Assembly: GCA_045627865.1 (NCBI GenBank)
Contig: JAZQOK010000018.1
Coordinates: 41,193-105,192 of the forward strand
Source: Bacteroidales bacterium
GTDB lineage: Bacteria > Bacteroidota > Bacteroidia > Bacteroidales > UBA3663
Direction: 5' to 3'
DNA length: 64,000 bases
The number at the start of each line of letters is the position of its first letter. Positions within the stretch are counted from its first letter, which is position 1. Positions 9,204 to 62,336 of the stretch are shown here, one piece after another. Under the pieces are notes generated by a model. It was given only the letters and a program-made list of their open reading frames with translations, did not search any database and was not told where the DNA came from. The translations under genes and the position numbers were made by a program.

Positions 9204-9220
9204 AAGTATGTTTTTGTACC

Positions 9221-46278: not shown

Positions 46279-48303
46279 ATGAAAAAAATCACCCTATGTC
46301 TAGCCAGTCTGCTGGCAACAGCGAGCTTCGCTGCGGACAATACCTTTGACATTAACGTGAGCAAATTGGGTGCTCCTATCCAGAGCACCATGTACGGAAT
46401 CTTCTTCGAGGACATCAACTACGCAGCAGACGGTGGTCTGTATGCTGAGATGGTGTTGAACCGCTCGTTCGAATTCCCTAACAACCTTGCAGGATGGGAT
46501 GTATCCGGCAAGGTTTCGGTTATGAACGATGGTCCTTTCGACAAAAATCCTCATTATGTACGACTCGCACCTGCAGGACACGCACACAAGCACACCATGA
46601 TCGAGAACCAGGGCTTCTTCGGCATGGGCGTGAAGGAGGGTGCTGAATACCGCTTCTCGGTTTGGGCTCGTTGTCCAGAGGGCGGCAAGGCTAAAATCTG
46701 GATCGACATCGTGGACAATGACACCATGAGTGATGACCAGAAGCTGGGCAATGCCGGTTTCGACGTCGAGGGCAAGGAGTGGAAGAAATATTCGGTAAAA
46801 GTAAAGGTTCGCAAGACCATCGAGGATGCACACCTCCGCGTATGGGGTGATGCCAAGACCGTGACCGACCTGGAGCACGTGAGCCTCTTCCCTGTTGACA
46901 CCTGGAAGGGTCGCGAGAATGGTATGCGCAAGGATCTGGCTCAGGCTTTGAATGATCTGAAACCTGGTATCTTCCGTTTCCCTGGCGGTTGTATCGTAGA
47001 GGGCACAGATTTGGAGAGCCGTTACCAGTGGAAGAACTCTGTTGGTCCTGTTGAGAACCGTCCGTTGAACGAAAACCGCTGGCACTATACCTTCACCAAG
47101 CGTTACTTCCCTAACTACTACCAGAGCTATGGCCTCGGTTTCTTCGAGTACTTCCAGCTCTGCGAGGATTTCGGTTGCGAGGCTCTGCCTGTTATCAGCT
47201 GCGGTCTCTCTTGCCAGTTCCAGAACGACATCAAGGACGAGGCTAACTGCCACGTGGCTCTTGAGGATCTGGATCCATACATTCAGGATGCTCTCGACCT
47301 GATTGAGTTTGCTAACGGCGATGTGAATACCACCTGGGGTAAAGTTCGTGCAGACATGGGCCATCCAGAGCCATTCAATCTGCACTACCTTGGCGTTGGC
47401 AACGAGCAGTGGGACTACAAGGACAATGCTGCTTTCACTACCCGTCTGAAGAAGTTTATGGATGTGCTCTCGAAGAAGCACCCTGAAATCAAGTATATCG
47501 GTACCACCGGTCCTGACTCGGAGGGTGATGCCTTCAACATGTTGCAGCCAAAGATGAAGGAGCTGGGCGTTTCACTCTACGACGAGCACTTCTACCGCAA
47601 CGAGGAGTGGTTCCTCGGCAAAGCTAAGGATCGTCAGGGCAACCCTATCAACTGCGGCGCTCTGCGTTATGATTCATACGATCGCAAGGGTCCAAAAATT
47701 TTTGCCGGTGAGTATGCTTGCCATGGCCGTGGCAAGAAGTGGAACCACTTCGAGACTTCACTTTATGAGGCAGCCTTCATGACCGGTTTCGAGCGCAATG
47801 CTGACATCGTTCACATGTGTACCTACGCTCCTCTCTTCGCTCATGTGAAGGGTTGGCAGTGGCGTCCAGATATGATCTGGTACGATAACAACCGTATGTT
47901 CAAGTCTTGCAGCTACTATGTTCAGCAGCTCTATGGTATGTACAAGGGTACCAACGTGCTCTCCTGCACCATGAACATGAAGCCCATCGCCGGACAGGAG
48001 GGTCAGAACGGATTGTTTGCTACCGCTTGCTTCGACAAGGCAACCAATAGCGTCATCGTCAAGGTTATCAATACTGGTGACGAGGAGCAGACCATCGACC
48101 TGAAGTGGGCTGGTAAGGCTAAGGACTTGAAGGCTGGTTTCAAGGAGGCCGAGATGATCACCTTCCGCGCCAACCAGATGAACGACGAGAACTCTTTGAA
48201 TGATCCGCTCAAGATTACTCCAAAGACCGACATCATCGATCCTGCTACTACCGAAGTTAAGGTGACCGGTAAGACCTTCCAGATTTACGTATTCAAGAAG
48301 TAA
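46279..48303 (+). CDS. alpha-L-arabinofuranosidase, GH51-like with N-terminal carbohydrate-binding-like domain
   Basis: Signal peptide. FRFPGGCIVEG and an acid/base context LGVGNEQW. 674 aa. Confidence 0.8.
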   Translation: MKKITLCLASLLATASFAADNTFDINVSKLGAPIQSTMYGIFFEDINYAADGGLYAEMVLNRSFEFPNNLAGWDVSGKVSVMNDGPFDKNPHYVRLAPAGHAHKHTMIENQGFFGMGVKEGAEYRFSVWARCPEGGKAKIWIDIVDNDTMSDDQKLGNAGFDVEGKEWKKYSVKVKVRKTIEDAHLRVWGDAKTVTDLEHVSLFPVDTWKGRENGMRKDLAQALNDLKPGIFRFPGGCIVEGTDLESRYQWKNSVGPVENRPLNENRWHYTFTKRYFPNYYQSYGLGFFEYFQLCEDFGCEALPVISCGLSCQFQNDIKDEANCHVALEDLDPYIQDALDLIEFANGDVNTTWGKVRADMGHPEPFNLHYLGVGNEQWDYKDNAAFTTRLKKFMDVLSKKHPEIKYIGTTGPDSEGDAFNMLQPKMKELGVSLYDEHFYRNEEWFLGKAKDRQGNPINCGALRYDSYDRKGPKIFAGEYACHGRGKKWNHFETSLYEAAFMTGFERNADIVHMCTYAPLFAHVKGWQWRPDMIWYDNNRMFKSCSYYVQQLYGMYKGTNVLSCTMNMKPIAGQEGQNGLFATACFDKATNSVIVKVINTGDEEQTIDLKWAGKAKDLKAGFKEAEMITFRANQMNDENSLNDPLKITPKTDIIDPATTEVKVTGKTFQIYVFKK

Positions 48304-48332
48304 TCTAAGTTAAGCTCGCCAATCTATATAAT

Positions 48333-48384
48333 CTAGCTAATCTAGAAAAAAACTGGAAAAATCCAGCATATCTAGATTAGCTAG
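48333..48384. promoter_or_regulatory. 14-bp perfect inverted repeat with a nested 5-bp hairpin, between the two GH51 genes
   Basis: ctagctaatctaga (48333-48346) pairs with tctagattagctag (48371-48384). Inner ctgga-aaaa-tccag is at 48353-48366. No T-run follows. AATCTA occurs four times just upstream. Confidence 0.6.
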
Positions 48385-48403
48385 CAAAACAACCATAAAA
48401 ACT

Positions 48404-49984
48404 ATGAAAAAAACATTAGCAATTAGTGTAGCAGCCTTGTTGGGCAGCTGCATGCAGGCTCAGGACGTCACCCTGACTTTGCACCCTCAGCAGGCAGAGA
48501 CTGTCATTCCAAAGGAGATTTACGGACAGTTTGCTGAGCACCTCGGACGCTGTATCTACGGCGGCATCTGGGTCGGCAAGGATTCTGAAATTGAGAACAT
48601 CGAAGGGTACCGTAAGGATGTATTCGATGCCCTGAAGGAGCTCGAAGTTCCTGTGATGCGCTGGCCAGGCGGTTGCTTCGCCGATGAATATCACTGGATG
48701 GACGGTATCGGTCCACAGGAGAAACGTCCACGCATGGTGAACACCAACTGGGGTGGAACCGTTGAGGACAATTCGTTTGGTACCCACGAGTTCCTGAACC
48801 TCTGCGAATTGCTGGGTTGCGAACCTTACATCTCGGGCAATGTCGGTTCCGGCACTGTCGAGGAGATGGCTAAGTGGGTTGAGTATATGAACTCAGATAC
48901 CAACAGCACCATGGCTGAGGAGCGTCGCAAGAATGGCCGTGAGAAGCCTTGGAACGTGAAGTACTTCGGCGTCGGCAACGAAAGCTGGGGTTGTGGCGGC
49001 AACATGAAGATCGAATACTACGTAAACGAATACAAGCGCTACAACACCTATGCCCGCAACTACGGCAACAATAAGCTGTTCCGTATTGCATCGGGTGCTA
49101 ATGGTGGCGATACCCACTGGATGGATGTTGCTATGCGCGAGTGCCGTCACAATATGGATGGTATTTCGGTTCACTTCTATGCTGTACGAGATTGGGGTTC
49201 GGAGGATGATCCTATCACAGGTATTCCTATGGGCAAGAAGGGTTCAGCCCTGAAGTTCTCGGATCAGGAGTACTACGAAATCGTTTCGAAGTCACTCGAG
49301 TTGGAAGATGTTCTGAAGGCTCACATGAAGGTGATGGACAAATACGATCCACAGAAGCGAGTAGCTATCATGTTCGACGAATGGGGAACCTGGTTTAACG
49401 TCGAACCAGGCACCAACCCAGGCTGGCTCTACCAGCAAAGCACCATGCGTGATGCTGTCATCGCAGCTTCGTCGCTCGATATCTTCCACAAGTACACCGA
49501 CCGCGTGAAGATGGCAAATATCGCTCAGGTGGTTAACGTACTGCAGAGCATGGTTCTGACCAACGAAAAGAACCCTAAGGACCATTGCATCATGACTCCT
49601 ACCTACTACGTCTTCAAGATGTACAAGGCTCACAAGGAGGGCAAGTTCGTACCAGGCGAACTTACTTGCGAGAAGATTCAGGTGAACGAGAAGGAGCAGG
49701 TTCCTGTTGTTTCTCAGTCTGCTTCGATCAAGGAGGGTGTCATCAGCCTCTCTCTGTCGAACCTCGACGTAGCCAAGACCCACGTTGTGGCTGTCAACAT
49801 CGATGGTCAGAAGGTAAAGAACATTTCGGGCGAGATCCTTACCGCCAAGGATGTTCATGCCTACAACGACTTCGGCAAGCAGCAGGTCGCTACTACCGCG
49901 TTCAACGACTTCAAGATCAAGAAGGACGGCACACTACTCGTTACCATCCCTGCTCATAGCGTAGTTACTCTGAGCCTCAAGTAA
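48404..49984 (+). CDS. alpha-N-arabinofuranosidase, GH51
   Basis: Signal peptide. MRWPGGCFADEYHW and FGVGNESWGCGG. Confidence 0.85.
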   Translation: MKKTLAISVAALLGSCMQAQDVTLTLHPQQAETVIPKEIYGQFAEHLGRCIYGGIWVGKDSEIENIEGYRKDVFDALKELEVPVMRWPGGCFADEYHWMDGIGPQEKRPRMVNTNWGGTVEDNSFGTHEFLNLCELLGCEPYISGNVGSGTVEEMAKWVEYMNSDTNSTMAEERRKNGREKPWNVKYFGVGNESWGCGGNMKIEYYVNEYKRYNTYARNYGNNKLFRIASGANGGDTHWMDVAMRECRHNMDGISVHFYAVRDWGSEDDPITGIPMGKKGSALKFSDQEYYEIVSKSLELEDVLKAHMKVMDKYDPQKRVAIMFDEWGTWFNVEPGTNPGWLYQQSTMRDAVIAASSLDIFHKYTDRVKMANIAQVVNVLQSMVLTNEKNPKDHCIMTPTYYVFKMYKAHKEGKFVPGELTCEKIQVNEKEQVPVVSQSASIKEGVISLSLSNLDVAKTHVVAVNIDGQKVKNISGEILTAKDVHAYNDFGKQQVATTAFNDFKIKKDGTLLVTIPAHSVVTLSLK

Positions 49985-49991: not shown

Positions 49992-51152
49992 ATGGTTACA
50001 GACCCAATGCTGTTTACCAATCTGATTATAACACTACCAACATTTGCATGCCTGTTCTGGGCATGCATTTTCTTGTTGGAATATCGTAAAGGCCCGAAGG
50101 AGAAGAGACTGATGTGCTGGTTTATGATTACAGCCACGCTCCTCTACTTCGGACACTATTGCTATTTCAGCAAAGCCTATGGGATTCTGCCCGTAACCGA
50201 CACGCTCTATTCCATGGCTAATCTGGCGGTATATCCGATCTACTATCTCTATGTCCGATACATCACAACCAACCGGTTAGAGATCAAAAGATGTCTGTTG
50301 GTTCTTCTGCCAGCGGCATTAATTGGCATCAGCAATCTGCTGGCCTACAGTTTCGAAAACAAAGAGAGCGTGGATGCCTTCATAGCAGAATACCTATACC
50401 ACGAAGAACGTGCGATGGCAGATTCCATAACCTATCATTGGCTGTATGTGAATCATGCTCTGGCAAGATTCTGCTTTGCCGCCATGGTGCTGATAACGAT
50501 ATTGCTTTGCTACAGGATGATCAGACAGTTCGACCAAAGGCTCAAGGAGTTCTATTCTAACCGCGAGGGGCGAAATATGAATGTGATCATGACCCTCCAA
50601 ATCAGCATGGTAATAACGTCGGTCGGAGCCGTCATCCTAAACGTACTGGGAAAATCATTTTTTGTCGACAACATCCTGTTGGCCATCCCTTCGCTTGCTT
50701 TTTCATCGTTGCTGTTTGCGATAGGATACGATGCCTACCGACGGACATTCACAGCAAGAATATTCGAGGACGAACAGAAGAACGCACCTATAGAAGAGCT
50801 TTCCACCGAAAAGATCGAATCAGAATTATCAGTTCGTCTTATCAAAATCCTGAACGAAGAACAGCTGTATCTGCAGACCGACCTGAAGATTACAGACCTG
50901 GCACGAGTTTTGGCGACAAACCGAAACTATATCTATCTGGCCATCAAGAATGACCTGAACACAAACTTTTCGGACCTGATCAACAAGATGCGCATCGAAC
51001 ATGCACAGAAGCTCATCGACAAAGATCCTTCCTGCCCCTTGTCAGAAGTTGCACTAATGTCTGGATACACCTCCGAAAGTTCATTCTATCGCAACTTCAA
51101 GAAACAAACAGGAGCAACACCTGCGGAACACAAGAGAAGAGAACAAGGATAA
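49992..51152 (+). CDS. membrane-anchored AraC-family transcriptional regulator
   Basis: About 240 aa of TM helices, then an AraC HTH pair (ITDLARVLATNRNYIYLAIK ... VALMSGYTSESSFYRNFKKQTG). Starts 8 nt after the GH51 stop. Confidence 0.8.
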   Translation: MVTDPMLFTNLIITLPTFACLFWACIFLLEYRKGPKEKRLMCWFMITATLLYFGHYCYFSKAYGILPVTDTLYSMANLAVYPIYYLYVRYITTNRLEIKRCLLVLLPAALIGISNLLAYSFENKESVDAFIAEYLYHEERAMADSITYHWLYVNHALARFCFAAMVLITILLCYRMIRQFDQRLKEFYSNREGRNMNVIMTLQISMVITSVGAVILNVLGKSFFVDNILLAIPSLAFSSLLFAIGYDAYRRTFTARIFEDEQKNAPIEELSTEKIESELSVRLIKILNEEQLYLQTDLKITDLARVLATNRNYIYLAIKNDLNTNFSDLINKMRIEHAQKLIDKDPSCPLSEVALMSGYTSESSFYRNFKKQTGATPAEHKRREQG

Positions 51153-51216
51153 TCCGGAGAACAGGATATAACCCAGAACCAAGATTAATCCAGAGAACAA
51201 GAGACAACCAGACAAA
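51131..51216. repeat. degenerate ~18-bp tandem units (ending AGAACA) spanning the AraC-family stop codon
   Basis: caagagaagagaaca/aggataatccggagaaca/ggatataacccagaacca/agattaatccagagaaca/agagacaaccagacaaa. The stop TAA is at 51150-51152. Confidence 0.7.
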
Positions 51217-51256
51217 AAAACAAGAGGTGTACCCGTACGGCACACCTCTCTTTCTA
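51213..51256. terminator. bidirectional intrinsic terminator
   Basis: 8-bp stem agaggtgt / acacctct plus two inner GC pairs. An A7 run lies before it and tctttct after. Confidence 0.7.
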
Positions 51257-51281
51257 TATATATGTTTAAGTGGTTATGTAA

Positions 51282-52487
51282 TTATTGCTTGGTCAAACGA
51301 CAAGGCAGATTGGCAACATTCGAGAAGGCGAAATCACCCAAAGGAAGGAACAGACGAGTGAAATCTTTGCCAAATGGAGGCTCTGAATTCCAACTATTGG
51401 GTGAAGGTTCCTCGTAACCATTCTTATAATCATCGATGCCACAAGGACGTGCTTCATTGACGAGATACTTGGTTACATGGAAATTAATATAACCATTCTC
51501 GCAGGTAAATGTACCCTTCATACGCTGCCCCCATGAAGGAATAATAAAATCGAAGTTGTCACCATCGAAGATCATGGCCGTACGAACATCATACTGACCA
51601 TCATTCCGGTCCATAAACCACAACCAGGTTCCCTGAACATCCTTTGAATTCATTTCGATCTTAGCATCCTTCTTATAGAAAACCATCATGCCATGATCCT
51701 CGTAAACCTCCACCAGATTGCCCTGGTTATCCTGGTATGTATAGATTGGAATAATGACAAGAGCCTGATTATTACGATACACCTCGATTTTGGCCTTATG
51801 TGGCTCAATCTGATTCTTATCAGAAGATGTCGCAACTGGAGTCATATAGACGATGTCGCCCTCAAGGACATAAGTACCTGCTTCATACGCAACACTATCC
51901 CAATCCTCCATGATCGAATAGGTCTTATCGGTCAGGGTGAGTATGGTGGTATAGTCCTCACTCTTCATCAACCACACACCGGCAAGCGAGGCGGCATCGC
52001 CACCAACGTTACCCGAGTCTGAATTCAATATCTCAACATCCTTAATGACCGAAACAACCGTACCATCGACAGTCTCAGCATTAACGGTAATCTTCACGGT
52101 CTCAGAAACTCCATCGCCAACGGCAACAACGACAACGTAAGAATAGGTAGAATTTGCACCACGTACAGCCGACGCATTATTACTGAGAGCTTGTGCCGGA
52201 CACTCCAAATAACCATCGACGCCAGCTACAGCAATAAAGAATTTGCTTAATTCAACAGGACTGGTAACAATAATACTGGTCGATGTTTCGGTCTTGGTCA
52301 CATGGTTTGTGAGACCTTGTACCTGGTCGGTTACAGCAGGAATGGATCCCTGTTTAACAACGGCATCGACAACACCCAATACCTGCTCAATTGCAGACTT
52401 TACATCGCCTGAATCATCATCGCTGTCGCAACCTGTAAAGGAAAATGCGGCAAAGGCCATCATGGCCATAACAAAATACTTTTTCAT
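51282..52487 (-). CDS. lipoprotein of unknown function
   Basis: Lipobox SFTGC followed by DSDDDSGD. Beta-rich, with repeated GTW/GVW-containing lipocalin-like segments. No family recognised. Confidence 0.6.
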   Translation of the reverse strand: MKKYFVMAMMAFAAFSFTGCDSDDDSGDVKSAIEQVLGVVDAVVKQGSIPAVTDQVQGLTNHVTKTETSTSIIVTSPVELSKFFIAVAGVDGYLECPAQALSNNASAVRGANSTYSYVVVVAVGDGVSETVKITVNAETVDGTVVSVIKDVEILNSDSGNVGGDAASLAGVWLMKSEDYTTILTLTDKTYSIMEDWDSVAYEAGTYVLEGDIVYMTPVATSSDKNQIEPHKAKIEVYRNNQALVIIPIYTYQDNQGNLVEVYEDHGMMVFYKKDAKIEMNSKDVQGTWLWFMDRNDGQYDVRTAMIFDGDNFDFIIPSWGQRMKGTFTCENGYINFHVTKYLVNEARPCGIDDYKNGYEEPSPNSWNSEPPFGKDFTRLFLPLGDFAFSNVANLPCRLTKQ

Positions 52488-52586
52488 AATAATAAATTAA
52501 TTAATGTGGGATTTGATACCGCAAAGATAAACTATTTTTGATGTAAAGACACTTGCAAATTCGCAAATCAGGACTCCTAATATAAC

Positions 52587-52622
52587 AAAAAAGCACACCA
52601 GAACGGTGTGCTTATATTTTTT
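52587..52622. terminator. intrinsic terminator after the 52636-53997 gene
   Basis: 9-bp stem aagcacacc / ggtgtgctt with a 5-nt loop. U-runs are present on both strands. Confidence 0.8.
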
Positions 52623-52635
52623 GATGATTTTGAAT

Positions 52636-53997
52636 TTATTTGTCTGGGTACTTAACGAAATACTCCTCAACAGCATTTACGTTCTTCTCAATAGCAGCAA
52701 CCCAAGGCTTGCGGTGAGAATCATCCTCCTCGTTAGCAGCGAGGTAAAGCTGACGCTGAATAAGGTTCTTCCATTCGTCGCTGCGGAAATACTTACGCTG
52801 GGTAAGAATGTATTCGATCAAAGACATTGAACGACCGAAGTCAGCCAACTCCCACTCGCCATTCTCACGGATGAGCTGCATATTCATGCTTGACTTAGAG
52901 ATATCAAAGCCCTTGACATTGGCTACGTTCAAATATACTGATACATAATCATCAGTAATAGGAATAACGTGTGCGCTGCTGATGAAAACGAGATCATCCT
53001 CAGGATTGTTGACGAGGTAGTTGAGCTTCTCATGACGCATCTCACGGCCGAAAGCATCAATAGGAACTGCAAATGCGTGGGTCAGCAAAGCGTGAAGCTG
53101 CTTTGAGAATGCCTTCTCTACGTTTGGAAGGTTACAAGCAGCATCCTTGCAAGTGCGGCCAGGAATAGCATTGAAGAGAGCACGAACACGCTTCTCGTTC
53201 AAACCAGAAGCAATGAGACGTCTCTGAATTTCAGGCGAAGACTCGATAACGAAGGTTGGCTCCTTCTCACCTGCAACAGTGATGTTATCTGGGTACTTCT
53301 CCAAGTATGCATCGATATCGCTCAACATACGACGAGAAGCATCACGCTCCTTAACTTTATAGCGTGGGTAGTTACCCTCGAAACGCTCCTTCTCGAACCA
53401 ACGGCGCCACTCTAGTGAGCGGAAGCAAAGACGCTGATCGCGGATGAAGTCCTTGATTTCAGACTTGAAACGGTCCCTACCTACAGCGAAGTCATCAATA
53501 AGCCAATGACCGCCTGAAGGGATCAAACTCAAAGTGGTTACGATGTGTGAATACTCACGAGAGTTAGAATAGCCAACGTAGCAGTAGCTGGCATATACCT
53601 TAGCGAAAGTAGAATCGTTAGAGTTGTAGATCTTAACGGAGTCAACGGTGGTTACGTCACGATCACAAATCTCACCAAAGATACTTGATGCGAAATAAGC
53701 GGTACGGAGAGGTGACTCAACGTCCATCAAATCCTTTGACTCACGAATCAATGCAGCAGCATCGAATGAGCAAAGGTTCTCCTTCTTCTCATTCTCCTCG
53801 CCCTTGAAAGTAGGCAAAGACCAGAACAAACGCTCAACGATTGAGTCAGTCAATTCTTCACAAGCTTCAATGGAGTCGTTACTTACACTTGGTACGATGA
53901 CGGTCGGAGCAGACTGCTCCTTTTGTCCGGAACATGCGGCCAATGTTGCAACTGCAAAGAGACCGGCAATCAACTTAAATGAATTTTTCTTATTCAT
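52636..53997 (-). CDS. lipoprotein of unknown function with an internal two-module duplication
   Basis: Lipobox TLAAC. Two modules end alike: ...HWLIDDFAVGR ... IDAYLEKYPD and ...EWELADFGRSM ... VEEYFVKYPDK. Confidence 0.6.
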   Translation of the reverse strand: MNKKNSFKLIAGLFAVATLAACSGQKEQSAPTVIVPSVSNDSIEACEELTDSIVERLFWSLPTFKGEENEKKENLCSFDAAALIRESKDLMDVESPLRTAYFASSIFGEICDRDVTTVDSVKIYNSNDSTFAKVYASYCYVGYSNSREYSHIVTTLSLIPSGGHWLIDDFAVGRDRFKSEIKDFIRDQRLCFRSLEWRRWFEKERFEGNYPRYKVKERDASRRMLSDIDAYLEKYPDNITVAGEKEPTFVIESSPEIQRRLIASGLNEKRVRALFNAIPGRTCKDAACNLPNVEKAFSKQLHALLTHAFAVPIDAFGREMRHEKLNYLVNNPEDDLVFISSAHVIPITDDYVSVYLNVANVKGFDISKSSMNMQLIRENGEWELADFGRSMSLIEYILTQRKYFRSDEWKNLIQRQLYLAANEEDDSHRKPWVAAIEKNVNAVEEYFVKYPDK

Positions 53998-54337
53998 GGA
54001 TTATAATGAATATATAATAATAATTGCATTCGGGTTTACGGTGCAAATATAAAGAAAAAAATTTATATGCCATCAAAAAATCATAAAAAAATTAAAATTT
54101 CCTCTTATTTTGTGTCTTTTGGTTCATTTCGAATAGATAGAGACCCCCAATTTGAGCGCAATTGCACAACAAACCTCGTCATTTTATCCCATAAACGAGG
54201 GCATGAAAGCAAGAAATCAACCAGGATTGAATTCAGCAAAAAATATACAATAATAAAATATTTTACGCACCATGCAATTTTTTTGTAACAATTCCGTTAT
54301 ACCTTATAATATAATAAACACACATCCAACCTATCGA

Positions 54338-55120
54338 ATGTTAAACGCGAACAGAGAGGCAGCCCTACAGGCCATCAAGACTGAACTGGAATCGTTCGGG
54401 CCTATCGGGCTCGATCAGATGAAGAAGGTCAAATTGATGAACCGTATCGATACCAAATACGTCATCCCGCTTGCTCAATTAGCTCCGCTTCTACACATTG
54501 CGGCGCCAGAATATTTTGTGCAATCCACCGACGGAAAACGTACCGCCTCTTACCACACCATCTATCTGGACACGGCCGATCACAGGATGTACAATCTACA
54601 TCAAGTGGGTCGAAAAGTCCGTCAGAAGATACGAATCCGACAATATCTGGACACCCAGAACACCTTCCTCGAAATCAAGAACAAAAACAACCACGGACGC
54701 ACCAAGAAGAAACGCATCGAGGTTCCCCTGATGGATTGCATGTCGCTCGCGGATTGCGTTGATTTTGTGGCCGAAAAGTCCTGGTTCAAGATGGACGAGC
54801 TCCGCAAGCATGTCGAGAATCGGTTCGAACGAATTACCCTCGTAAACCGTGGGTTCTCCGAACGATTAACCATCGATCTGGGTGTGCATTTCCACAATTA
54901 CGAAACCGGACGCGATGCAGACATCGGCCATTTGGTTATCATCGAGCTCAAACGCGATGGTGCAACCTATTCGCCGATGTATAATCTCCTGCTCCGCATG
55001 CACATCCACCAAGGTGGATTCAGTAAATACTGCATCGGATGCGCATTGACCAATCCGGCTCTCCGACAAAACAATTTCAAGGAGAAGATACATCGGATAG
55101 ATTCACTTCGTTCACGATAA
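54338..55120 (+). CDS. VTC-domain (CYTH-like tunnel, polyphosphate-polymerase-like) protein
   Basis: RIDTKYVIP, YHTIYLDTADHRMY, RQKIRIRQY, FLEIKNKNNHGRTKKKR and LVIIELKRDG match the basic-tunnel pattern of VTC domains. ATG at 54338 was chosen over the ORF-track start at 54272. Confidence 0.7.
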   Translation: MLNANREAALQAIKTELESFGPIGLDQMKKVKLMNRIDTKYVIPLAQLAPLLHIAAPEYFVQSTDGKRTASYHTIYLDTADHRMYNLHQVGRKVRQKIRIRQYLDTQNTFLEIKNKNNHGRTKKKRIEVPLMDCMSLADCVDFVAEKSWFKMDELRKHVENRFERITLVNRGFSERLTIDLGVHFHNYETGRDADIGHLVIIELKRDGATYSPMYNLLLRMHIHQGGFSKYCIGCALTNPALRQNNFKEKIHRIDSLRSR

Positions 55121-55208
55121 ATATCGCTATGCGAAGTTAAAAGTTCACTTCGTTCACGATAATTATCGCTATGCGAGGTTAAAAGTTCACTTCGTTCACG
55201 TTAAATAT
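55102..55208. repeat. 42-bp tandem repeat (2 full copies plus a partial one) spanning the VTC stop codon
   Basis: Copies start at 55102, 55144 and 55186. Copies 1 and 2 match at 40 of 42 positions. Each contains the palindromes acttcg..cgaagt and cgata-aa-tatcg. Confidence 0.9.
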
Positions 55209-55344
55209 AACATGTTAAATATTGCATGTTAAATAACCCAAACATTTAACAGTTTACTATTTAACGCCAAAGGCTTTTAACGTGAGGCAAAGCCGAACTT
55301 TTATCGTGAGTACAAAATACGAACATTTAACATTTTAATATATT

Positions 55345-56040
55345 ATGATTTTTGATCTAATTTCTTTCGCTGCCAAAGTGGCAGACGAGGCTGATGCCCT
55401 GATGGGAGGCGACGAGCCTGTATTTGAGTTTACCGGACTGTGGGATCTGCTTCTACACTTCGGGTTCAATCTGATATTCGCAATCGGTATTATTCATTTG
55501 CTCTATTTCCGTCGCAGCCGCCGTGCCGACTACTATTTCACCTTTGCCTTGATCAGCATCTCCATCTTCCTGATGCTCTATCTGTTGGGTTCAGTCAAGA
55601 TCAAAATCGGATTCGCTCTCGGTCTGTTTGCCATCTTCGGCATCATCCGTTATCGTACCGAATCGATGCCAGTACGAGAGATGACCTATCTCTTCGTGAT
55701 TATCTCTATGAGTGTAATCAATGCGTTGGTACACGATTGGGTAAACCTGGTGGCAGTTGACAGTCTCTTCTTCTGCTCTTGCCTATTGGGCGAGCAGACA
55801 CGTCGTTTCAAGCACAATGCCTGCAAGTATGTCAAATATGACCGTATCGATCTGATTCTCCCTTCGAAGAAGGCAGAAATGATTGCAGATCTTGAAGCTC
55901 GTTTGGGCGTCAAAATTCTTCGCGTGGATGTCGGCACAGTCAATTTCCTCAAGGATATGGCACTCCTCAAGGTTTATTACGAACCCCTGGATGACAATGA
56001 GGAGAACACGGTTGACGAGATGACCAAGATTCCATCTTAA
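55345..56040 (+). CDS. DUF4956-like integral membrane protein
   Basis: Four or five TM helices followed by a about 90-aa cytosolic C-terminal domain. It sits in the usual partner position next to a VTC-domain gene (recollection). Confidence 0.6.
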   Translation: MIFDLISFAAKVADEADALMGGDEPVFEFTGLWDLLLHFGFNLIFAIGIIHLLYFRRSRRADYYFTFALISISIFLMLYLLGSVKIKIGFALGLFAIFGIIRYRTESMPVREMTYLFVIISMSVINALVHDWVNLVAVDSLFFCSCLLGEQTRRFKHNACKYVKYDRIDLILPSKKAEMIADLEARLGVKILRVDVGTVNFLKDMALLKVYYEPLDDNEENTVDEMTKIPS

Positions 56041-56050
56041 TATAACGACT

Positions 56051-56058
56051 TATTTTTG
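56051..56058 (+). promoter_or_regulatory. candidate -7 box (TATTTTTG) upstream of the beta-barrel gene
   Basis: Exact TAnnTTTG match, 73 nt upstream of the ATG at 56131. A 7-bp inverted repeat acgcgga/tccgcgt follows it. Confidence 0.4.
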
Positions 56059-56130
56059 GCACGCAGATTACGCGGATAAAGCAGATATAAATTTCCGCGT
56101 TCAACTGTACATGTCAACAAATCAACGATT

Positions 56131-56883
56131 ATGAAAAAATTATTTTTCATTCTATCCTTCTCCCTTTTCCTTTCTCCCTTTTCCTTTCTCCTCGCAGAGG
56201 ATACTGGCGTAGGCATCGAGGTTTCGGCATCGAAGAAGATCGTCAAAGGACTGGAGGCTTCGGTCGAGGCAGAAGTCCGCACACAAGATGCAGTAAGCCA
56301 AATGGAGCGCTGGAGTATCGGCGCTGGCATAGATTATAAGATACTCAAGTGGCTCAAGGCAGATGCCGGTTATATCCTGATCGATCGTTACAAACCATCG
56401 CACTCCTATCTTTCGGACAAAGGCAACCTGAAGGAGGTGGAAAGTATCTGGTCGCCACGACACAGGGCCTATGCCTCGGTCAACGCCAGTTGGAAGCCCA
56501 ACAAGCATTGGGATTTCTCGCTCCGCGAACGATATCAGTTTACTTACGAAACCGAACAGCATGCCAAGTGCATGAACCTGACGAAGAACAAACGCGATGA
56601 CGACAAAGTGTATGGTGGCGAGGCAGAACACCTGCTCCGTTCACGCATCCAGGCCAAGTATATCATCAAGAAGAAATGTCCGTGGGTTCCTTTCGCCAAC
56701 ATCGAGGCACTCAACGATCTGGAGAAGGGATTCGAACTCGACCAGATGCGATACACCCTCGGCACAGACTATAAAATCAACAAAAAGAATTCATTGGGCC
56801 TCGCCTATCGTTTCAAGGACAAGACAACCAAAGACGAAGACAAAGGCCATTTAATCACTTTCAGTTACAGCTATGACTTCTAA
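56131..56883 (+). CDS. putative outer-membrane beta-barrel protein (DUF2490-like)
   Basis: Signal peptide, alternating hydrophobic beta-strand pattern, and a C-terminal ...ITFSYSYDF ending in Phe as in OMP barrels. Confidence 0.5.
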   Translation: MKKLFFILSFSLFLSPFSFLLAEDTGVGIEVSASKKIVKGLEASVEAEVRTQDAVSQMERWSIGAGIDYKILKWLKADAGYILIDRYKPSHSYLSDKGNLKEVESIWSPRHRAYASVNASWKPNKHWDFSLRERYQFTYETEQHAKCMNLTKNKRDDDKVYGGEAEHLLRSRIQAKYIIKKKCPWVPFANIEALNDLEKGFELDQMRYTLGTDYKINKKNSLGLAYRFKDKTTKDEDKGHLITFSYSYDF

Positions 56884-57931
56884 ATTATCATGGGCGTTGG
56901 CATTAACCCTGACGCTGACATTAACCGCCTGCAACGATGACGACAAGCCCTACATCGACCAAGGACCAGATCCAGTTGTAATTACCCGCACCATGGCCGA
57001 TTCCATCTGGATGGAGCAACTCGGACAAGGCACCCCAACCATGACCGAAGCCGACGTTCCATCGGACACAGCCCAGGCCTATTACGACGACTACATCCAG
57101 AACTGGATTATGCCCGACGAGGAGATTCGAGACATCGAAATCACCTTTACCAACGATACCGTAACCTGGAAATACCCAGACGAGAAGAAACAAGGCACAG
57201 CCAAGGCGGTAAAGATGGAGGCTCATGGGGCACACCTCATTGTCCGAAACGAGAACGTAACGGAAACGGGTGAAGCCGATGGTCGCGCGCGTGTAAACTA
57301 TGTTTTAAGAGGACAATCCGAGCATGCCTCAATCCGCATCTACAGCAACAAGAAGTTCATGATTACCCTCGATGATGCTCAGCTCACGAACGACAAAGGT
57401 TCGGTCATCAACGTGCAGAAGTCGCTCGAAAAGAAGCGTGTGTTTATCTGTCTGAAAGGCAACAACTATATCGCCGATGCAACACAATATAGCGATACCG
57501 TGGTTGGCGAAGACGACAAGGGAGCCATCTTCAGCGAAGGCAAGATGATCATTACCGGCAACGGAGTCCTGAAAGTAAAGGGCAACTGCGGTCATGCTAT
57601 TGCCAGCGACGACCGCATCCACATTCACGGAGGCGCAATGGTCGAAATCGAAGAGGCTGCCAAAGATGGTCTTCATGCCAAAGAGGAGATAGTCATCTCA
57701 GGCGGTTGGGTTCGCAGTTTTGCAGCCAAAGATGCCGTTCAGGGCGCATCACTCTACTTGCGTGGCGGTTGTCTGATGGCTGCCGGACCCAACGCAGTTT
57801 CTGCACCTGTGTTCGACTACTCTGGCGGTCAATTCTGTCTGGTCGGCAACAGCACCGACACACCGACTTCCGGTTCTACTTCCTGGATCCTGACCGAGAA
57901 TCCTGGTTGGGTAATCGTTACCAGCAAATAA
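56873..57931 (+). CDS. lipoprotein with Cthe_2159-type beta-helix ('carbohydrate-binding domain-containing protein')
   Basis: Lipobox LTLTAC. Repetitive beta-helix rungs (KGAIFSEGKMIITGNGVLKVKGNCGHAIASDDRIHIHGGAMVEIEEAAKDGLHAKEEIVISGG). Overlaps the upstream gene by 11 nt. Confidence 0.55.
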   Translation: MTSKLSWALALTLTLTLTACNDDDKPYIDQGPDPVVITRTMADSIWMEQLGQGTPTMTEADVPSDTAQAYYDDYIQNWIMPDEEIRDIEITFTNDTVTWKYPDEKKQGTAKAVKMEAHGAHLIVRNENVTETGEADGRARVNYVLRGQSEHASIRIYSNKKFMITLDDAQLTNDKGSVINVQKSLEKKRVFICLKGNNYIADATQYSDTVVGEDDKGAIFSEGKMIITGNGVLKVKGNCGHAIASDDRIHIHGGAMVEIEEAAKDGLHAKEEIVISGGWVRSFAAKDAVQGASLYLRGGCLMAAGPNAVSAPVFDYSGGQFCLVGNSTDTPTSGSTSWILTENPGWVIVTSK

Positions 57932-57989
57932 GAGGACAAGACACAAATATAAACAGCCCAGTTGCAAATCTGTAACTGGGCTGTTTTTG

Positions 57990-60900
57990 TTATTTTACCA
58001 ACTTGCCATTTCGAATATGAATACCACCAATAGGTTGAAGTAGTTTGCGTCCCTGCAGATCGTACAATTCAGCATCTCGGCGATCATCATCGACAAGAGT
58101 CTCTATTCCATCGACTGCCGTAAGTCGCAGGCATCCATCCTGACAGAGAGTCGAAGTATCCCAAGCATAGCCTTCGCAAGGAATGGCAGGCTCGACCGTA
58201 AAGGTACCTGAAAGCACTATGCCCGTAGCACCTGAGAAAATCTGGAGGATAGAGCCAGGTGCTATTGTAGAACCATCTCTACTCACCAAACGCAGGACAG
58301 GCGAAGTCATGGTAACGCGCGATGCCTTGATTTGATCACAAACTGTTCCTGCTGAGGAATAGCCGACAGAGAGGACTGCACCGGCATGGATGGTCAGATT
58401 ACTGATCGAAGCGCTCTTCTTGTCTGTGCTTGCCAACGATCCGCTATAGACATGCACCGGACCAACTGCCTCTCCAGTCAAAGTCATCGTACCTGTACCA
58501 TATTTATTGAGGGTAGCGCCCGTCTCAACAACGCCGCCAAAGATAAAATCCTCGTTCCGATAACCGACATTCCAGACGCTGGTACCAATCGTTCCGGAAC
58601 CGGTCAATGAACCCACCTTGTGCGTATAAGAACTGGCAGTACCAGAACCCGCTTTCATGCCCGAAGCATAAGCATCCTTGTCCAATTGCAGCACAGCCTT
58701 CGAGAGATCCATCGCCTGCACAAAACGGCAATTGGCAGTAGTAACCTGATAGGTTCCCTCGAAGGCGGAAGTGTTGGTATAGACATCGCCTCGCACGTAT
58801 GGGAAGGAGATCTTATAGATACCCTTACCCTTCAACGATCCCTTGATCGTACAACGGCTACCGGCTTTGAAGGTACAGGTCTTGGCAGAATCGATTTCCA
58901 GAACATTTCCGAAGTTTGGAATGGTCGAGGTCGAGTTGGCGTCGAACATAACAATAGTAGAATTGCCCGTGACGTGGATGGTAGAGCCCTCTTTGCCGAA
59001 GGTTGTTCTCCAACTACCCATGGCCAATGTTCCTGCCTGCAGGATGGTTCCAGCCCAAGTATTGGCACCATCGTAAGTGATATTCAGCTGTCCGGTACCC
59101 GTCTTGTGCAACAGGCCCTTACCAGTAATGATTCCCTTCAGTGCCGTTGTGCCCGAAGAGATCTGAATGGTAGCGGTATCGTTCAGGGTCATGCCACGAT
59201 TGGTAGCCGCATTACTGTTGTTGACGGCCAAAGTAGCCTTGCCCATCTGGAGGTTAGTTGCGGTCGAAGCAGCAGCACCCAGACATGAAGGCAGACCGCC
59301 ATCGGCCAGATCCTTGACAACAACCGTACCCTCGTTGATGATGGTTGCTCCCGTATAATCGCTCTTGGTGGCATTCAGTATCAGTCTGCCCGTACCATTC
59401 TTGACCAAAGAACCTGTACCCGACAATCCACCTGCACCCTGGAAGGTATAATCCTTGGTACTATTGACCTCGACACGACCCACAGGCATCAGTTCAGGGA
59501 TTGTAACGGTAGTCACAGCACCACGGTCATCGAACAGGACAGAATCGGAGGTAACGAAAGCGGTTGACTCCTCTCCATGCATCCAGTTCTGAAGTTTATA
59601 GTCCCAAGTACCGCCCTCAGCACCCGTCCAGACAACATCGTTGGTAGCCGAGCGTTGTCCGTTGATGCGAAGCTGAATCCTATGATCTTCATTAACAATA
59701 TCGTAGCTGATACCCGTCAGGCCGCGTACCTTAAAGAGATCCAATGAGCCCGAGAAGGAGCCTGTATAGCTGATGAGCGGATAAGTTCCGGCTTGGGCTT
59801 CATCTCCCTCGATGGTGAAGCAGGTGGTCTTCGAGACCGACAAATCTCCTTGGACAGAGAGCAGACTCTTTCGGTCCAGATTGATTTCGATGTAATTCTC
59901 CTGATTGAGCGACAGGCTGCCATTGACCCGTAATGTATCCAATGGACGGATACGACCACCTTCGTAGTTCAAAGCACCCTCGAAAGTAATGGCAGCCACC
60001 TGACCCGAACCGGACAAAGTACCACGGGCACGCAGATCCACAACGCCGGTCAAAGTGCCATCCACCTGAAGCGTTCCCTCGGAGATGATTGTCTTACCGG
60101 CGACACGGCTCGATGGATTCAGGACAGCAGTTCCCGGTTGGCTCTTCCACAAGGTGGTATTGGCCGACAAGTCTCCATTCAGGGACAAGATCTGCCCCTT
60201 GACTGGCATCACATAGACATTCCTCTTGTCGGCAGGCAGAGAGACCGTTGCAGAGCCCTCTGTGAGTCCGTACACCGCATTATCGGCCGCTGTCTGGATG
60301 AATGGTGGCAACGGTGGACGAGGCATGTCATAGCCCAAATAGAAGCTGGTATTGGGGGACTGATAATAACCTCGGTTGGTGATCTGTCCGAAGTAGTTAG
60401 GATCCTGCAACAGACAGTAGATCTTCTTGTCGGAAGAGGTAATGCCTGTGGTCAGACCGACAAAGCCGCACTCCTCGCCATTGATGATCTGCTTGAGGAT
60501 CAGTTCCTCGCGCCAATCGCCATAGATATCGCCCCAGAACATAGCACGAACGGCATTCTCGGCAGCCAGAGTCCAGCTGCTTTCGCTCGAGATGGAGAAG
60601 ATACGAGACCAGGTGGCCGTCTTATTGTACTTGGCGATGATGACTGGGCAGTTGTTGCCCGAACCGGAGGTCATGACGCTCTCACGTCCGAGGTCGCCAT
60701 CCCACCAGATGCCTTCGTATGGATAAGGCTTTTCGGTTCCAATCTGATCACCTTTGGCATTATAGATATTCGGCATGGTTGACCACATCTCGTAGCCCTT
60801 GTGCGCAGGATCGACATCCATACACTCGCCACGGCCCACGTCGCCTACAGCCGAGAGATACCACTTCTTGATCGGTTTGCCAGTCGAAGCATCGTACAGG

Positions 60901-62336
60901 ATCTGGCCCAACATGTCGGGCGCATTCTGCTGGATAGCGAAGATCTCCTGACCCGGACGATCGGGATCGATATCCGACATACGGAAACGGTCTCCGTGTG
61001 AGATTCCCGAAGTCCAGAGCAGCTTGCCATCGTGATCGACGGCACATTGGCCGTTCATTACCTCATCCTTGCCATCGCCATCCACATCTCCGATACGGAT
61101 ATGGTGGAACTCGCTCAGGTTCGAATAGTCGTGGAACTTGAAGATCCACTTCTCCTTGAAGGTTCCGTTCTCGTAACCATAGGCATAGGTGAAATAGTGG
61201 TGATTGCCATCGCTCGTACGACATTGGAACTGGGCCACGGCACTCTGATTCACACCATCCAGATAGGCTGTACCCATGGCAGGCGACGGATAGGAATACT
61301 CATCCTTCATGAAAGCCGACTTATTTGTTCGGGTATAGGTCATATCCTTATCCTTGGGCAGGGTCATGGCGCAGATATCCTTCTGCTGACCCGTCAGACC
61401 ATCGATCACCACAAAATACCATTGTGGATTCTTTCCCTTGTCGTACCAGGTGTAGTTGGTGATGCCGTCGCCATCGATGTCAGGATTGCTTCCATCGCTC
61501 GAAACTGTCACCATGCCGGTACCTGAGGCTGACATCTGCTCCCCATTATAGTAAAGGTATGGGCCGAAGTCTTTCTTCTGGGCATCCCAGAAACGGGCAC
61601 CCTCCGCCAACTGGATGATAACCTCACCCTTGCCATCGCCATCGAAGTCACCAACAGTCAGACCATCGTTCTGTCCGCCGAAGGAATAGTAATGGATACC
61701 GAGATTGACGGTCCAAAGATGCTTGCCCTGACGATTGTAAGCTTCGAGGCAGTCACCACCTAACTTATCGTCGCCCCAACCATAGCAACCGTTCTGGTCT
61801 TTGGCTGTATAGACACGATTCACGACATACTCCATCTCTCCATCGCCATCCAGATCGACCGGCCAACAGAACTTGGTGACGAAAGTCAATCCATCGTGGT
61901 CATAGATTGGAGAACCTGCCTGCTTGAAGTTGACTGCAACGAAGGCATTGGAGAGATTGACCTTCTCCGAAGCAGACTTTGACAAGGCATAGTTGTGAAA
62001 CACAAAGGGGACAGACGACGCACCCTCCTGCCCCTGATCATCGATCAAGGTTACATAGATAGAGGCGCCCTCTGGCACTTGGGAGGTTGTCGCTGTGTAG
62101 TTGGTTAACGAAACTGGGGTGGAGTTGAGTTTGCTGTAACTGGCTCCATCCTTGGCCACATAAATATTGTAGGTAGCATCTTCAGGATCCTGAATCAATC
62201 GACGCCAGGAGATCATGATTCCTGACGAAGACTTGCTGGCTACAACACCACGGCCTAACTTCTGCACACGTTGTGCGGGCAGAACTGTCGAGAGAGAAAG
62301 CAGGGCGAATGTGATGCCCCATGTGAGTTTGTTCAT
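57990..62336 (-). CDS. rhamnogalacturonan lyase (PL11 beta-propeller) fused to autotransporter-associated beta-strand repeats and a T9SS sorting tail
   Basis: The N-terminal half has propeller Ca-site repeats (DLDGDGEMEYVV, VGDFDGDGKGEV, DIDGDGITNY, IGDVDGDGKDEV, WWDGDLGRE, WGDIYGDWREEL). The C-terminal half has PATR-like units (GTGRLILNATKSDYTGATIINEGTV, GTGQLNITYDGANTWAGTILQAGTL, GTGTMTLTGEAVG). The tail is LYDLQGRKLLQPIGGIHIRNGKLVK. Confidence 0.75.
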   Translation of the reverse strand: MNKLTWGITFALLSLSTVLPAQRVQKLGRGVVASKSSSGIMISWRRLIQDPEDATYNIYVAKDGASYSKLNSTPVSLTNYTATTSQVPEGASIYVTLIDDQGQEGASSVPFVFHNYALSKSASEKVNLSNAFVAVNFKQAGSPIYDHDGLTFVTKFCWPVDLDGDGEMEYVVNRVYTAKDQNGCYGWGDDKLGGDCLEAYNRQGKHLWTVNLGIHYYSFGGQNDGLTVGDFDGDGKGEVIIQLAEGARFWDAQKKDFGPYLYYNGEQMSASGTGMVTVSSDGSNPDIDGDGITNYTWYDKGKNPQWYFVVIDGLTGQQKDICAMTLPKDKDMTYTRTNKSAFMKDEYSYPSPAMGTAYLDGVNQSAVAQFQCRTSDGNHHYFTYAYGYENGTFKEKWIFKFHDYSNLSEFHHIRIGDVDGDGKDEVMNGQCAVDHDGKLLWTSGISHGDRFRMSDIDPDRPGQEIFAIQQNAPDMLGQILYDASTGKPIKKWYLSAVGDVGRGECMDVDPAHKGYEMWSTMPNIYNAKGDQIGTEKPYPYEGIWWDGDLGRESVMTSGSGNNCPVIIAKYNKTATWSRIFSISSESSWTLAAENAVRAMFWGDIYGDWREELILKQIINGEECGFVGLTTGITSSDKKIYCLLQDPNYFGQITNRGYYQSPNTSFYLGYDMPRPPLPPFIQTAADNAVYGLTEGSATVSLPADKRNVYVMPVKGQILSLNGDLSANTTLWKSQPGTAVLNPSSRVAGKTIISEGTLQVDGTLTGVVDLRARGTLSGSGQVAAITFEGALNYEGGRIRPLDTLRVNGSLSLNQENYIEINLDRKSLLSVQGDLSVSKTTCFTIEGDEAQAGTYPLISYTGSFSGSLDLFKVRGLTGISYDIVNEDHRIQLRINGQRSATNDVVWTGAEGGTWDYKLQNWMHGEESTAFVTSDSVLFDDRGAVTTVTIPELMPVGRVEVNSTKDYTFQGAGGLSGTGSLVKNGTGRLILNATKSDYTGATIINEGTVVVKDLADGGLPSCLGAAASTATNLQMGKATLAVNNSNAATNRGMTLNDTATIQISSGTTALKGIITGKGLLHKTGTGQLNITYDGANTWAGTILQAGTLAMGSWRTTFGKEGSTIHVTGNSTIVMFDANSTSTIPNFGNVLEIDSAKTCTFKAGSRCTIKGSLKGKGIYKISFPYVRGDVYTNTSAFEGTYQVTTANCRFVQAMDLSKAVLQLDKDAYASGMKAGSGTASSYTHKVGSLTGSGTIGTSVWNVGYRNEDFIFGGVVETGATLNKYGTGTMTLTGEAVGPVHVYSGSLASTDKKSASISNLTIHAGAVLSVGYSSAGTVCDQIKASRVTMTSPVLRLVSRDGSTIAPGSILQIFSGATGIVLSGTFTVEPAIPCEGYAWDTSTLCQDGCLRLTAVDGIETLVDDDRRDAELYDLQGRKLLQPIGGIHIRNGKLVK

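Follow-up and report, generated by a model that had tools for sequence, protein, structure and literature searches.

Introduction

In reviews of polyphosphate (polyP), VTC is the eukaryotic enzyme and PPK1/PPK2 is the bacterial route to the polymer (e.g. PMC10657179). Here we describe a cassette of four open reading frames (ORFs), confirmed on the + strand at positions 54338-57931 of a 64-kb stretch of DNA (hereafter the window, i.e. the whole stretch that was analysed) from a gut or rumen Bacteroidales bacterium. The cassette encodes a soluble VTC-domain protein (i), a DUF4956 inner-membrane protein (ii), a DUF2490 putative outer-membrane beta-barrel (iii) and a Cthe_2159-type beta-helix lipoprotein (iv). 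Judged from these sequences, it probably makes or moves polyP across the cell envelope.

The eukaryotic VTC complex is composed of Vtc4 with Vtc1, Vtc2/3 and Vtc5 (PDB 3G3Q, 7YTJ, 8I6V). Protein (i) has the Pfam family and the closed tunnel fold in common with it and keeps the residues R196, K200, R264, R266, K281, K294, R296, R361, R373, E426 and K428. The logic of a cytosolic polymerase joined to a membrane protein would also be shared, given the activity predicted for the bacterial protein. However, protein (i) is a VTC domain only (260 aa), lacking both the SPX domain and the C-terminal three-helix VTC membrane domain. Moreover, the membrane partner DUF4956 is encoded separately and shows no detectable similarity to Vtc1, D38 stands in place of T198, and outer-membrane and surface components are added. 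PPK1 and PPK2 share the putative product, likewise made from a nucleotide triphosphate, but they are unrelated in fold and mechanism and make cytoplasmic granules without dedicated envelope partners.

A second point of comparison is alginate secretion, which combines an inner-membrane synthase, the AlgE barrel and the beta-helix protein AlgG. Synthase-dependent secretion of this type is laid out much like the present cassette, with an inner-membrane polymerase/translocon, a small outer-membrane barrel and a right-handed beta-helix accessory. This is a likeness of layout, not homology; here the polymer would be inorganic and there is neither a cyclic di-GMP receptor nor a periplasmic TPR scaffold.

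In Gram-positive bacteria, cotH-VTC-DUF4956-DUF4832 adjoins pel operons (10.1101/768473), and a VTC protein, a membrane protein and CotH are encoded in NELoc-2 of C. perfringens (PMC2879425). These clusters have the core pair and the presence of extracytoplasmic partners in common with our locus. In contrast, the Bacteroidales form has a DUF2490 barrel and a Cthe_2159 lipoprotein in place of CotH and DUF4832, shows no linkage to pel and belongs to a diderm envelope. An earlier, sequence-only reading of the window had remarked that CotH, often a companion of the pair, is missing here. This is correct, as CotH accompanies the pair in Deinococcus and in Gram-positive pel loci (10.1101/768473), and no CotH gene was found among the eight proteins encoded at 49992-62336 or in the Bacteroidales contexts examined.

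All four families were already known, and the association of VTC with DUF4956 (and CotH) has been noted in passing (10.1101/768473). NCBI labels proteins of the type of (i) 'polyphosphate polymerase domain-containing', and NCBIfam holds no family for proteins (i)-(iii). Our literature search returned no functional study of BT3497-BT3500, DUF4956, DUF2490 or bacterial VTC domains, in keeping with the earlier statement that no bacterial function is known for VTC+DUF4956 pairs. Nor did it return a description of the Bacteroidales VTC-DUF4956-DUF2490-Cthe_2159 cassette, the only mention being a table entry for BT3498-BT3499. The gene set is thus not new, but the Bacteroidales four-gene form and the function that we propose for it are new to the literature searched.

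Family, fold and tunnel residues of protein (i)

Gene (i) (54338-55120, + strand) encodes a 260-aa soluble protein with the VTC domain of the triphosphate tunnel metalloenzymes (TTMs), a candidate polyP polymerase. An alternative in-frame ATG at 54272 would give 282 aa; homologues begin near 54338. The protein matches Pfam VTC (PF09359; 1e-27, 97.7 bits, cut-off 23) over model positions 1-233 of 235, and Vtc4 itself spans positions 2-234. It has no signal peptide and no transmembrane segment, either in the sequence or as helices in the model, and its isoelectric point (pI) is 9.6. The sequence-only reading had named VTC, DUF4956, DUF2490 and Cthe_2159 as the profiles to compare the four proteins with, and all four score well above the gathering cut-offs of these profiles, far more strongly than chance would allow. 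The four co-directional genes, the 11-nucleotide (nt) overlap of the last two, the YSYDF end of protein (iii) and the strings quoted from protein (i) (RIDTKYVIP, RQKIRIRQY, LVIIELKRDG and others) are likewise all present in the translations.

The AlphaFold2 (AF2) model of protein (i) (pLDDT 94.8, pTM 0.90) consists of eight long strands and C-terminal helices that form a closed beta-tunnel. The top Foldseek matches among solved structures are the tunnel domains of Vtc3, Vtc4 and Vtc2 (E ~2e-11, TM-score 0.56-0.63), with YgiF and the CYTH hydrolases and cyclases of the PDB ranking below them. Sequence searches of the PDB with protein (i), by phmmer and with a 22-sequence profile, did not find Vtc4. 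Therefore, the sequence of Vtc4 191-481, checked residue by residue against 3g3q_A, was used for alignment. Against Vtc4 alone, hhalign gave a probability of 7.7% and covered the N-terminal half only. With hmmalign only the central part could be aligned. The C-terminal halves, aligned globally as a pair, reached no significance (z = 1.4), and strands 5 and 6 were misplaced. The full residue map was built from the verified Vtc4 sequence together with diverse bacterial members in MAFFT L-INS-i, and from profile alignments.

In this map, protein (i) pairs with Vtc4 as follows: R36=R196, K40=K200, Y76=Y241, D78=D243, R99=R264, R101=R266, Y103=Y268, E112=E279, K114=K281, K124=K294, R126=R296, F163=Y359, R165=R361, R176=R373, T178=S375, D180=D377, E203=E426 and K205=K428. 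The tunnel lysines and arginines align with those of Vtc4 in both the profile and the multiple alignments, as the sequence-only reading had expected. Nearly all of these residues are identical in members from Bacteroidales, Deinococcus and Alphaproteobacteria, position 163 being F, Y or C. Moreover, K40, R99, R101, K114, R165, R176 and E203, the equivalents of triphosphate-, metal- and polyP-binding residues, are invariant across the three groups. The triple mutant R264A/R266A/E426N is the standard catalytically dead form of Vtc4 (PMC9911596). Bacterial members also carry an invariant FSK230[YF]xxG that resembles FS457K458FxxG of Vtc4, and FSK229-230 of protein (i) probably corresponds to Vtc4 FS457K458, with which it pairs in the pairwise alignment and by motif, in agreement with the Pfam coordinates. 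The equivalent of Lys-458 is also present in hydrolases (PMC4641920).

Membrane and surface components

Gene (ii) (55345-56040, + strand) encodes a 231-aa DUF4956 protein of the inner membrane, a candidate membrane partner or translocon of (i). It covers the whole Pfam model (PF16316; 1.4e-51, 175 bits, cut-off 30.6, model 1-169 of 169). Helices are modelled at 29-58, 61-80, 84-104, 110-128 and 132-154, followed by a C-terminal beta-alpha-beta-beta domain at 159-212. The family has a near-invariant core, VKxKxGFALGLFAIFGIIRYRTESMPVREMTYLF, and the loop RYRTESMPVRE falls in this most conserved stretch. By the positive-inside rule we infer that this loop and the loop RRSRRAD, both strongly basic, are cytoplasmic, as is the C-terminal domain. 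DUF4956 may work like a translocon, but by Foldseek comparison of the model it does not appear to be a homologue of Vtc1. The family is large, comprising about 1,100-1,900 clusters at 50% identity (1,109 at E <= 1e-10 among 1.84 billion representatives).

Gene (iii) (56131-56883, + strand; 250 aa, ending YSYDF) encodes a DUF2490 putative outer-membrane beta-barrel (TC 1.B.81). The match to PF10677 is strong (4.4e-27, 95.4 bits, cut-off 29.8), and weak C-terminal matches to OMP_b-brl and Porin_4 were also found with Pfam. An N-terminal signal peptide and a terminal aromatic F can be read from the sequence. Among catalogued families, DUF2490 counts as a putative porin whose function is unknown (PMC4827864), and a preprint describes it as a Sec-dependent barrel of the outer membrane (bioRxiv 10.64898/2026.07.29.741452). 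Here it is basic in pI, with near-invariant R50, R60, R112, R170, R172, K35, K76 and K218. In this arginine-rich, basic character it resembles the phosphate/pyrophosphate-selective porins OprO/OprP, whose family, Porin_O_P, takes the DUF2490 position in Pseudoalteromonas (see below). In contrast to these porins, the DUF2490 protein has no Porin_O_P match in Pfam and is a much smaller putative porin of ~228 mature residues.

Gene (iv) (56873-57931, + strand) encodes a 352-aa Cthe_2159-type beta-helix lipoprotein. It matches PF14262 (6.9e-28, 98.1 bits, cut-off 25.8) over model positions 10-157 of 262 only, and phmmer links it to the sequence of the crystal structure 4peu/4phb (2.9e-7). The match to this Clostridium thermocellum protein is direct over ~140 residues of beta-helix rungs. 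By comparison, (iv) is lipid-anchored by prediction, carries the surface-export motif of Bacteroidota and begins with an additional acidic region of 120 residues, and it is only partly covered by the Pfam model. Its lipobox LTAC20 is followed by N-D-D-D-K. As the lipoprotein export signal of Bacteroides is CS(D/E)2 (PMC6222051), LTAC20-NDDD fits an acidic signal of this kind and protein (iv) is predicted to be surface-exposed. Lipoprotein-class relatives mostly have 2-4 acidic residues after the Cys. The pI of protein (iv) is 4.85.

Conservation of the cassette across Bacteroidales

The cassette was surveyed in one genome per species. Together with seven earlier loci, the 80 loci kept give 87 loci from ~80 species, annotated with hidden Markov models built iteratively from the window proteins. 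The order VTC-DUF4956-DUF2490 is maintained in 87/87 loci whatever the flanking genes, with DUF4956 always adjoining the VTC gene. Where enough downstream sequence is available, a Cthe_2159 gene then follows in 69/82 loci, which bears out the co-conservation proposed from the window. VTC and DUF4956 are separated by a median of 33 nt, whereas DUF4956 and DUF2490 overlap at their stop and start codons (median gap -4 nt).

Three homologue look-ups on long contigs placed the four-gene order beside housekeeping genes, glycosidases and peptidases, and elsewhere it stands beside two-component systems. The closest relative, locus L096 (87% identity in protein (i)), shares the upstream glycoside hydrolase family 51 (GH51) genes with the window and has a pectinesterase downstream instead of the lyase. 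Given a fixed order amid unrelated flanks, the cassette is the unit and the pectin/arabinan-degrading neighbours are incidental. This bears directly on the idea that the four genes are not one system and that (iv) belongs with the degradative surroundings. In favour of such a chance neighbourhood are the flanking GH51 arabinofuranosidases and family 11 rhamnogalacturonan lyase (RGL11), and the founding Cthe_2159 protein is reported to bind pectic and cellulosic substrates. However, the same four genes recur beside housekeeping, other glycosidase or two-component genes, Cthe_2159 is present in 69 of the 82 informative loci, and in the window gene (iv) overlaps gene (iii) by 11 nt and is separated from the lyase gene by a strong hairpin. 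We regard this explanation as very improbable, and the survey largely refutes it.

Two sub-types of the cassette can be recognised. In 21 loci the Cthe_2159 gene abuts DUF2490, as in the window, and mostly encodes a lipoprotein with 2-4 acidic residues after the Cys. In 48 loci a fifth gene of ~150 codons, absent from the window, lies between the two (e.g. L003 12526-12984). Its product is secreted and carries a type-IX-secretion C-terminal sorting domain (Por_Secre_tail, 3e-6); the Cthe_2159 protein of such loci lacks a lipobox and starts with a signal peptide of the ordinary kind. Both sub-types, by their predicted signals, point to a cell-surface destination.

These data also bear on whether a polymer would leave the cell at all. 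A polyP reserve of phosphate and cations might instead be kept, unsecreted, in the periplasm or membrane, with DUF2490 serving as a porin for orthophosphate or small anions and the beta-helix protein as a separate accessory. The periplasm is topologically equivalent to the lumen of the yeast vacuole, the PiT and phytase-like genes that adjoin the pair in other phyla would recycle such a reserve, and Cthe_2159 is dispensable in 13/82 loci. Nevertheless, DUF2490 is linked in 87/87 loci, often through overlapping stop and start codons, and in most loci the fourth or fifth product is targeted to the surface, suggesting that the product reaches it. We therefore consider a periplasmic store rather unlikely, and synthesis coupled to export remains our preferred reading.

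Some called genes join DUF4956 to DUF2490 or to CotH, which counts in favour of a common module. In L078 (6471-7880), L085 (8825-10462) and proteins P0242 and P0332, DUF4956 runs into DUF2490 without a stop codon, and in P0303 it runs into CotH. As the linker still contains the downstream signal peptide or lipobox, these joins may be read-through or gene-calling artefacts and not true fusions; alternatively, they are real fusions with an extra membrane pass. No natural fusion of VTC with DUF4956 was found, P0221 being an internal duplication of DUF4956.

A LytS-type histidine kinase (PF06580) and a LytTR response regulator lie 3' of the cassette on the same strand in L010, L093, L094 and L095 (Bacteroides sensu stricto) and are candidates for dedicated regulators, judging by their families and position. 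We rejected them as a general component, as they occur in only one of the 87 loci (L010) besides L093-L095 and are absent from the window.

The cassette is carried by cultured Bacteroides, for example B. thetaiotaomicron (BT3498-BT3499, annotated as DUF4956 and DUF2490), B. helcogenes and B. timonensis, and its function is thus directly testable. In a transcriptome table BT3498-BT3499 are 7.6-fold lower under iron limitation, a difference that is not significant (p = 0.175; PMC10434189).

Further copies of the Cthe_2159 family were also observed. L001 has two large genes of the family (670 and 706 aa) at 5502-9818 on the - strand, upstream of the cassette and divergent from it, and L062, L066, L073 and L076 have a second paralogue downstream. 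Three cassettes of the Bacteroidales type (46-49% identity to protein (i)) were binned as Bifidobacteriaceae, Agathobaculum and a Methanomethylophilaceae archaeon (L032, L082 and L085); these labels are probably metagenome binning errors.

The VTC+DUF4956 pair in other phyla

Annotated plasmid and megaplasmid records were searched by tblastn with DUF4956, and the neighbouring genes were checked with Pfam. The pair was found in Deinococcus, Alphaproteobacteria and Gammaproteobacteria, with matches also in unannotated Actinomycetota records. The gene order is CotH kinase, VTC, DUF4956 in Deinococcus; DUF4956, VTC, phytase-like protein in Aminobacter; and DUF4956, VTC, PHO4/PiT phosphate transporter (1.7e-106), phytase-like protein in Nitratireductor. 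Pseudoalteromonas has a VTC remnant, then DUF4956 and, abutting it, a phosphate-selective porin O/P (2.4e-47). With VTC and DUF4956 constant and the accessories variable, this pair is the core of the system. Its accessory proteins have their place outside the cytoplasm, and a relation to phosphate recurs among them. That a phosphate species crosses the outer membrane is hinted at most strongly, among the independent evidence, by the OprO/P-type porin at the position of DUF2490.

The Pseudoalteromonas case is L089 (6225-8603), from a plasmid of Pseudoalteromonas sp. CuT4-3, in which only a C-terminal VTC fragment is left, overlapping an ORF with a lamin-tail domain, whilst DUF4956 and the OprO/P-type porin are intact. 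This copy of the system may have been rearranged or be in decay.

The same neighbours raise the question of direction. In a module running inwards, (iv) would bind polyP or some other phosphorylated polyanion from outside, DUF2490 would be an anion-selective porin and DUF4956 the importer in the inner membrane, with the VTC protein hydrolysing the chain or running the polymerase in reverse to make ATP. The Porin_O_P, PHO4/PiT and phytase-like neighbours in Proteobacteria fit uptake about as well as export, a surface lipoprotein with an outer-membrane barrel is the usual nutrient-capture layout of Bacteroidota, and the invariant acidic D38 occupies a hydrolase metal-site position. On the other hand, the full hydrolase acidic patch is missing, R36 and K205 being basic as in Vtc4, and no energy-coupling part for importing a highly charged polymer is present. 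In Gram-positives and Deinococcus the pair goes with CotH, pel and DUF4832, which have matrix and surface functions. Moreover, the top fold matches of protein (i) belong to the VTC polymerase subfamily and not to the YgiF-type polyphosphatases. On balance we judge uptake to be less likely than export, but it is the main rival and a serious one.

Proposed mechanism

We return to the preferred reading, ATP-driven synthesis of polyP coupled to its export, analogous to the eukaryotic VTC complex with non-homologous membrane parts. We put its chances at slightly short of even. Family membership, fold, residue conservation and gene linkage are the results on which the scheme is built, and each of its steps is our extrapolation from them. 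Protein (i) would dock on the cytoplasmic face of the DUF4956 protein (ii) and, with ATP and a divalent metal, extend a polyP chain by its gamma-phosphate, in the manner of yeast Vtc4. The chain would leave by the basic side of the tunnel and thread through an oligomer of (ii) into the periplasm, synthesis itself driving translocation as in the eukaryotic complex. The small, arginine-rich barrel (iii) could then pass the thin linear polyanion across the outer membrane, much as the anion porins OprO/OprP pass their substrates, and at the cell surface, or on outer-membrane vesicles, the lipoprotein (iv) may hold, organise or trim it. Since (iv) is acidic, its contact with the polymer would probably be made via bridging divalent cations. 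The product would be extracytoplasmic polyP, formed independently of Ppk.

The tunnel enzyme is the only part that uses a nucleotide triphosphate; TonB-dependent and ABC parts are both lacking, as would suit export driven by polymerisation. This model is the best-supported account of the Vtc4-like residues, of the fact that no other part couples energy, of an inner- and an outer-membrane protein being linked without exception and of the surface targeting of the last component. In this respect the families, residues and linkage partly support the cytosol-to-surface system for synthesis and export, or surface handling, of a polyanion that the sequence-only reading had envisaged, and none of the computational checks it had named spoke against it. 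Synthesis and export of polyP are both inferred, and import fits the proteobacterial neighbours about equally well. We advance more tentatively the wider claim that gut and rumen Bacteroidales, and many bacteria by way of VTC+DUF4956, possess a PPK-independent, ATP-driven synthase-translocon that carries polyP through both membranes, the outer one by a dedicated barrel, and displays it on the surface or on vesicles.

Whether protein (i) is a polymerase turns in part on the acidic patch. In hydrolytic TTMs this patch (E2, E4, E90 and E171 of AtTTM3) forms a second metal site, whereas Vtc4 has other residues there, for the most part basic ones along which the growing chain is led from the tunnel (Martinez et al., PMC4641920). 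Two of the three positions that could be mapped are basic in protein (i) as in Vtc4 (E2 corresponds to R36=R196 and E171 to K205=K428).

Several observations weigh against the proposed synthesis and export. The third mapped position, that of E4, is an invariant D38 (Glu in Deinococcus) at the place of a site-2 metal ligand, where Vtc4 has T198 and hydrolases have Glu. With R36 and K205 basic but D38 acidic, the bacterial clade is Vtc4-like but not identical to Vtc4. D38 would leave room for hydrolytic or mixed chemistry. The TTM family also contains hydrolases and cyclases, and the activity of protein (i) is a prediction from its sequence and model. MAFFT aligned FSK229-230 elsewhere than S457/K458, so the equivalence S229/K230 = S457/K458 is probable and not certain. 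For protein (ii), the model is only moderate (pLDDT 74), and a Foldseek search with it gave no significant match among solved structures and none to the VTC membrane domains. The OprO/P porin, PiT and phytase-like genes are classic phosphate-acquisition genes and fit inward transport too. Proteins of the Cthe_2159 type are acidic (median pI 4.7) and are not obvious direct polyanion binders, so that polyP binding would need bridging cations. Cthe_2159 is also absent from 13/82 loci and most relatives have a fifth small gene that the window lacks, which qualifies the earlier description of a four-gene set even though its linkage is confirmed. Finally, the 224-nt spacer between genes (i) and (ii) and an internal TAnnTTTG match, both described below, make co-transcription of all four genes less than certain.

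The product may also be other than free polyP. TTM enzymes use many triphosphate substrates (PMC4641920), and the tunnel enzyme might (poly)phosphorylate a glycan, lipid or protein of the cell surface. Alternatively, it could supply the beta-helix protein with a different polyanion, linked by phosphoanhydride or phosphodiester bonds. This would suit the carbohydrate-binding annotation of the Cthe_2159 family, the attachment of the Gram-positive pair to Pel polysaccharide loci and the departure of the bacterial clade from Vtc4 at D38. Against it, none of the 87 loci shares a consistent link to genes for a glycosyltransferase, a flippase or a lipid carrier, and the residues of the Vtc4 polyP path are kept (K124/R126, R165, R176 and K205), for which polyP is the simplest product. 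We consider such a product improbable.

If the cassette does make and export polyP, it would represent a second, mechanistically different bacterial polyP pathway and a prokaryotic counterpart of the eukaryotic VTC complex, as well as a new type of polymer secretion across the diderm envelope. It would moreover trace extracellular polyP of bacterial origin in the gut to a genetic source and give a defined genetic handle on that polymer in gut communities.

Locus layout and neighbouring genes

A hairpin with a 16-bp stem and T-runs was found by the terminator scan at 57951-57986, between gene (iv) and the convergent RGL11 lyase gene. It is likely a bidirectional terminator that closes the cassette, and the scan found no comparable + strand hairpin between the four genes.

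The spacer between genes (i) and (ii) is 224 nt in the window, compared with 145 nt in L096 (~80 nt shorter) and a median of 33 nt across the 87 loci. It is lengthened by a 42-nt tandem repeat of 2.5 copies (55102-55208, + strand; Tandem Repeats Finder score 193, 93% matches), which begins in the last codons of gene (i) and duplicates the 3' end of this gene including the stop codon. The 42-nt unit does not occur again in the window. Directly after it stands a 14-nt repeat, GTTAAATATAACAT, of 2.6 copies, the two together spanning 55102-55235. A perfect CT-rich 14-nt tandem repeat, TTCTCCCTTTTCCT (2.4 copies), lies at 56158-56192 in the signal-peptide coding part of the DUF2490 gene. As 14 nt cannot be divided into whole codons, each TTCTCCCTTTTCCT copy won or lost would put the DUF2490 gene out of frame, and the repeat could be a slippage-prone site.

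A possible internal promoter, TATTTTTG (56051-56058, + strand), lies 73 nt upstream of gene (iii). By pattern search it is the sole + strand match within the locus to the Bacteroidetes -7 consensus TAnnTTTG, and none was found on this strand upstream of gene (i). The window holds 37 matches against 28 expected, so TATTTTTG is a consensus match only and weak promoter evidence. A sigma-70 promoter scan is not informative for Bacteroidota. Rfam gave no match in or around the locus, and the anti-phage defence models of PADLOC gave no significant match.

Upstream of the cassette, on the - strand, two predicted lipoproteins of 401 and 453 aa are encoded at 51282-52487 and 52636-53997, without a match in Pfam or NCBIfam. 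L096 likewise has the 453-aa gene upstream of its cassette, whereas the 401-aa gene and an AraC-type membrane regulator (49992-51152) are absent from L096. Downstream, the - strand gene at 57990-62336 encodes a 1,448-aa protein that combines RGL11 domains with autotransporter-type passenger repeats (PATR). This gene is convergent with the cassette and near two GH51-like arabinofuranosidase genes (46279-49984).

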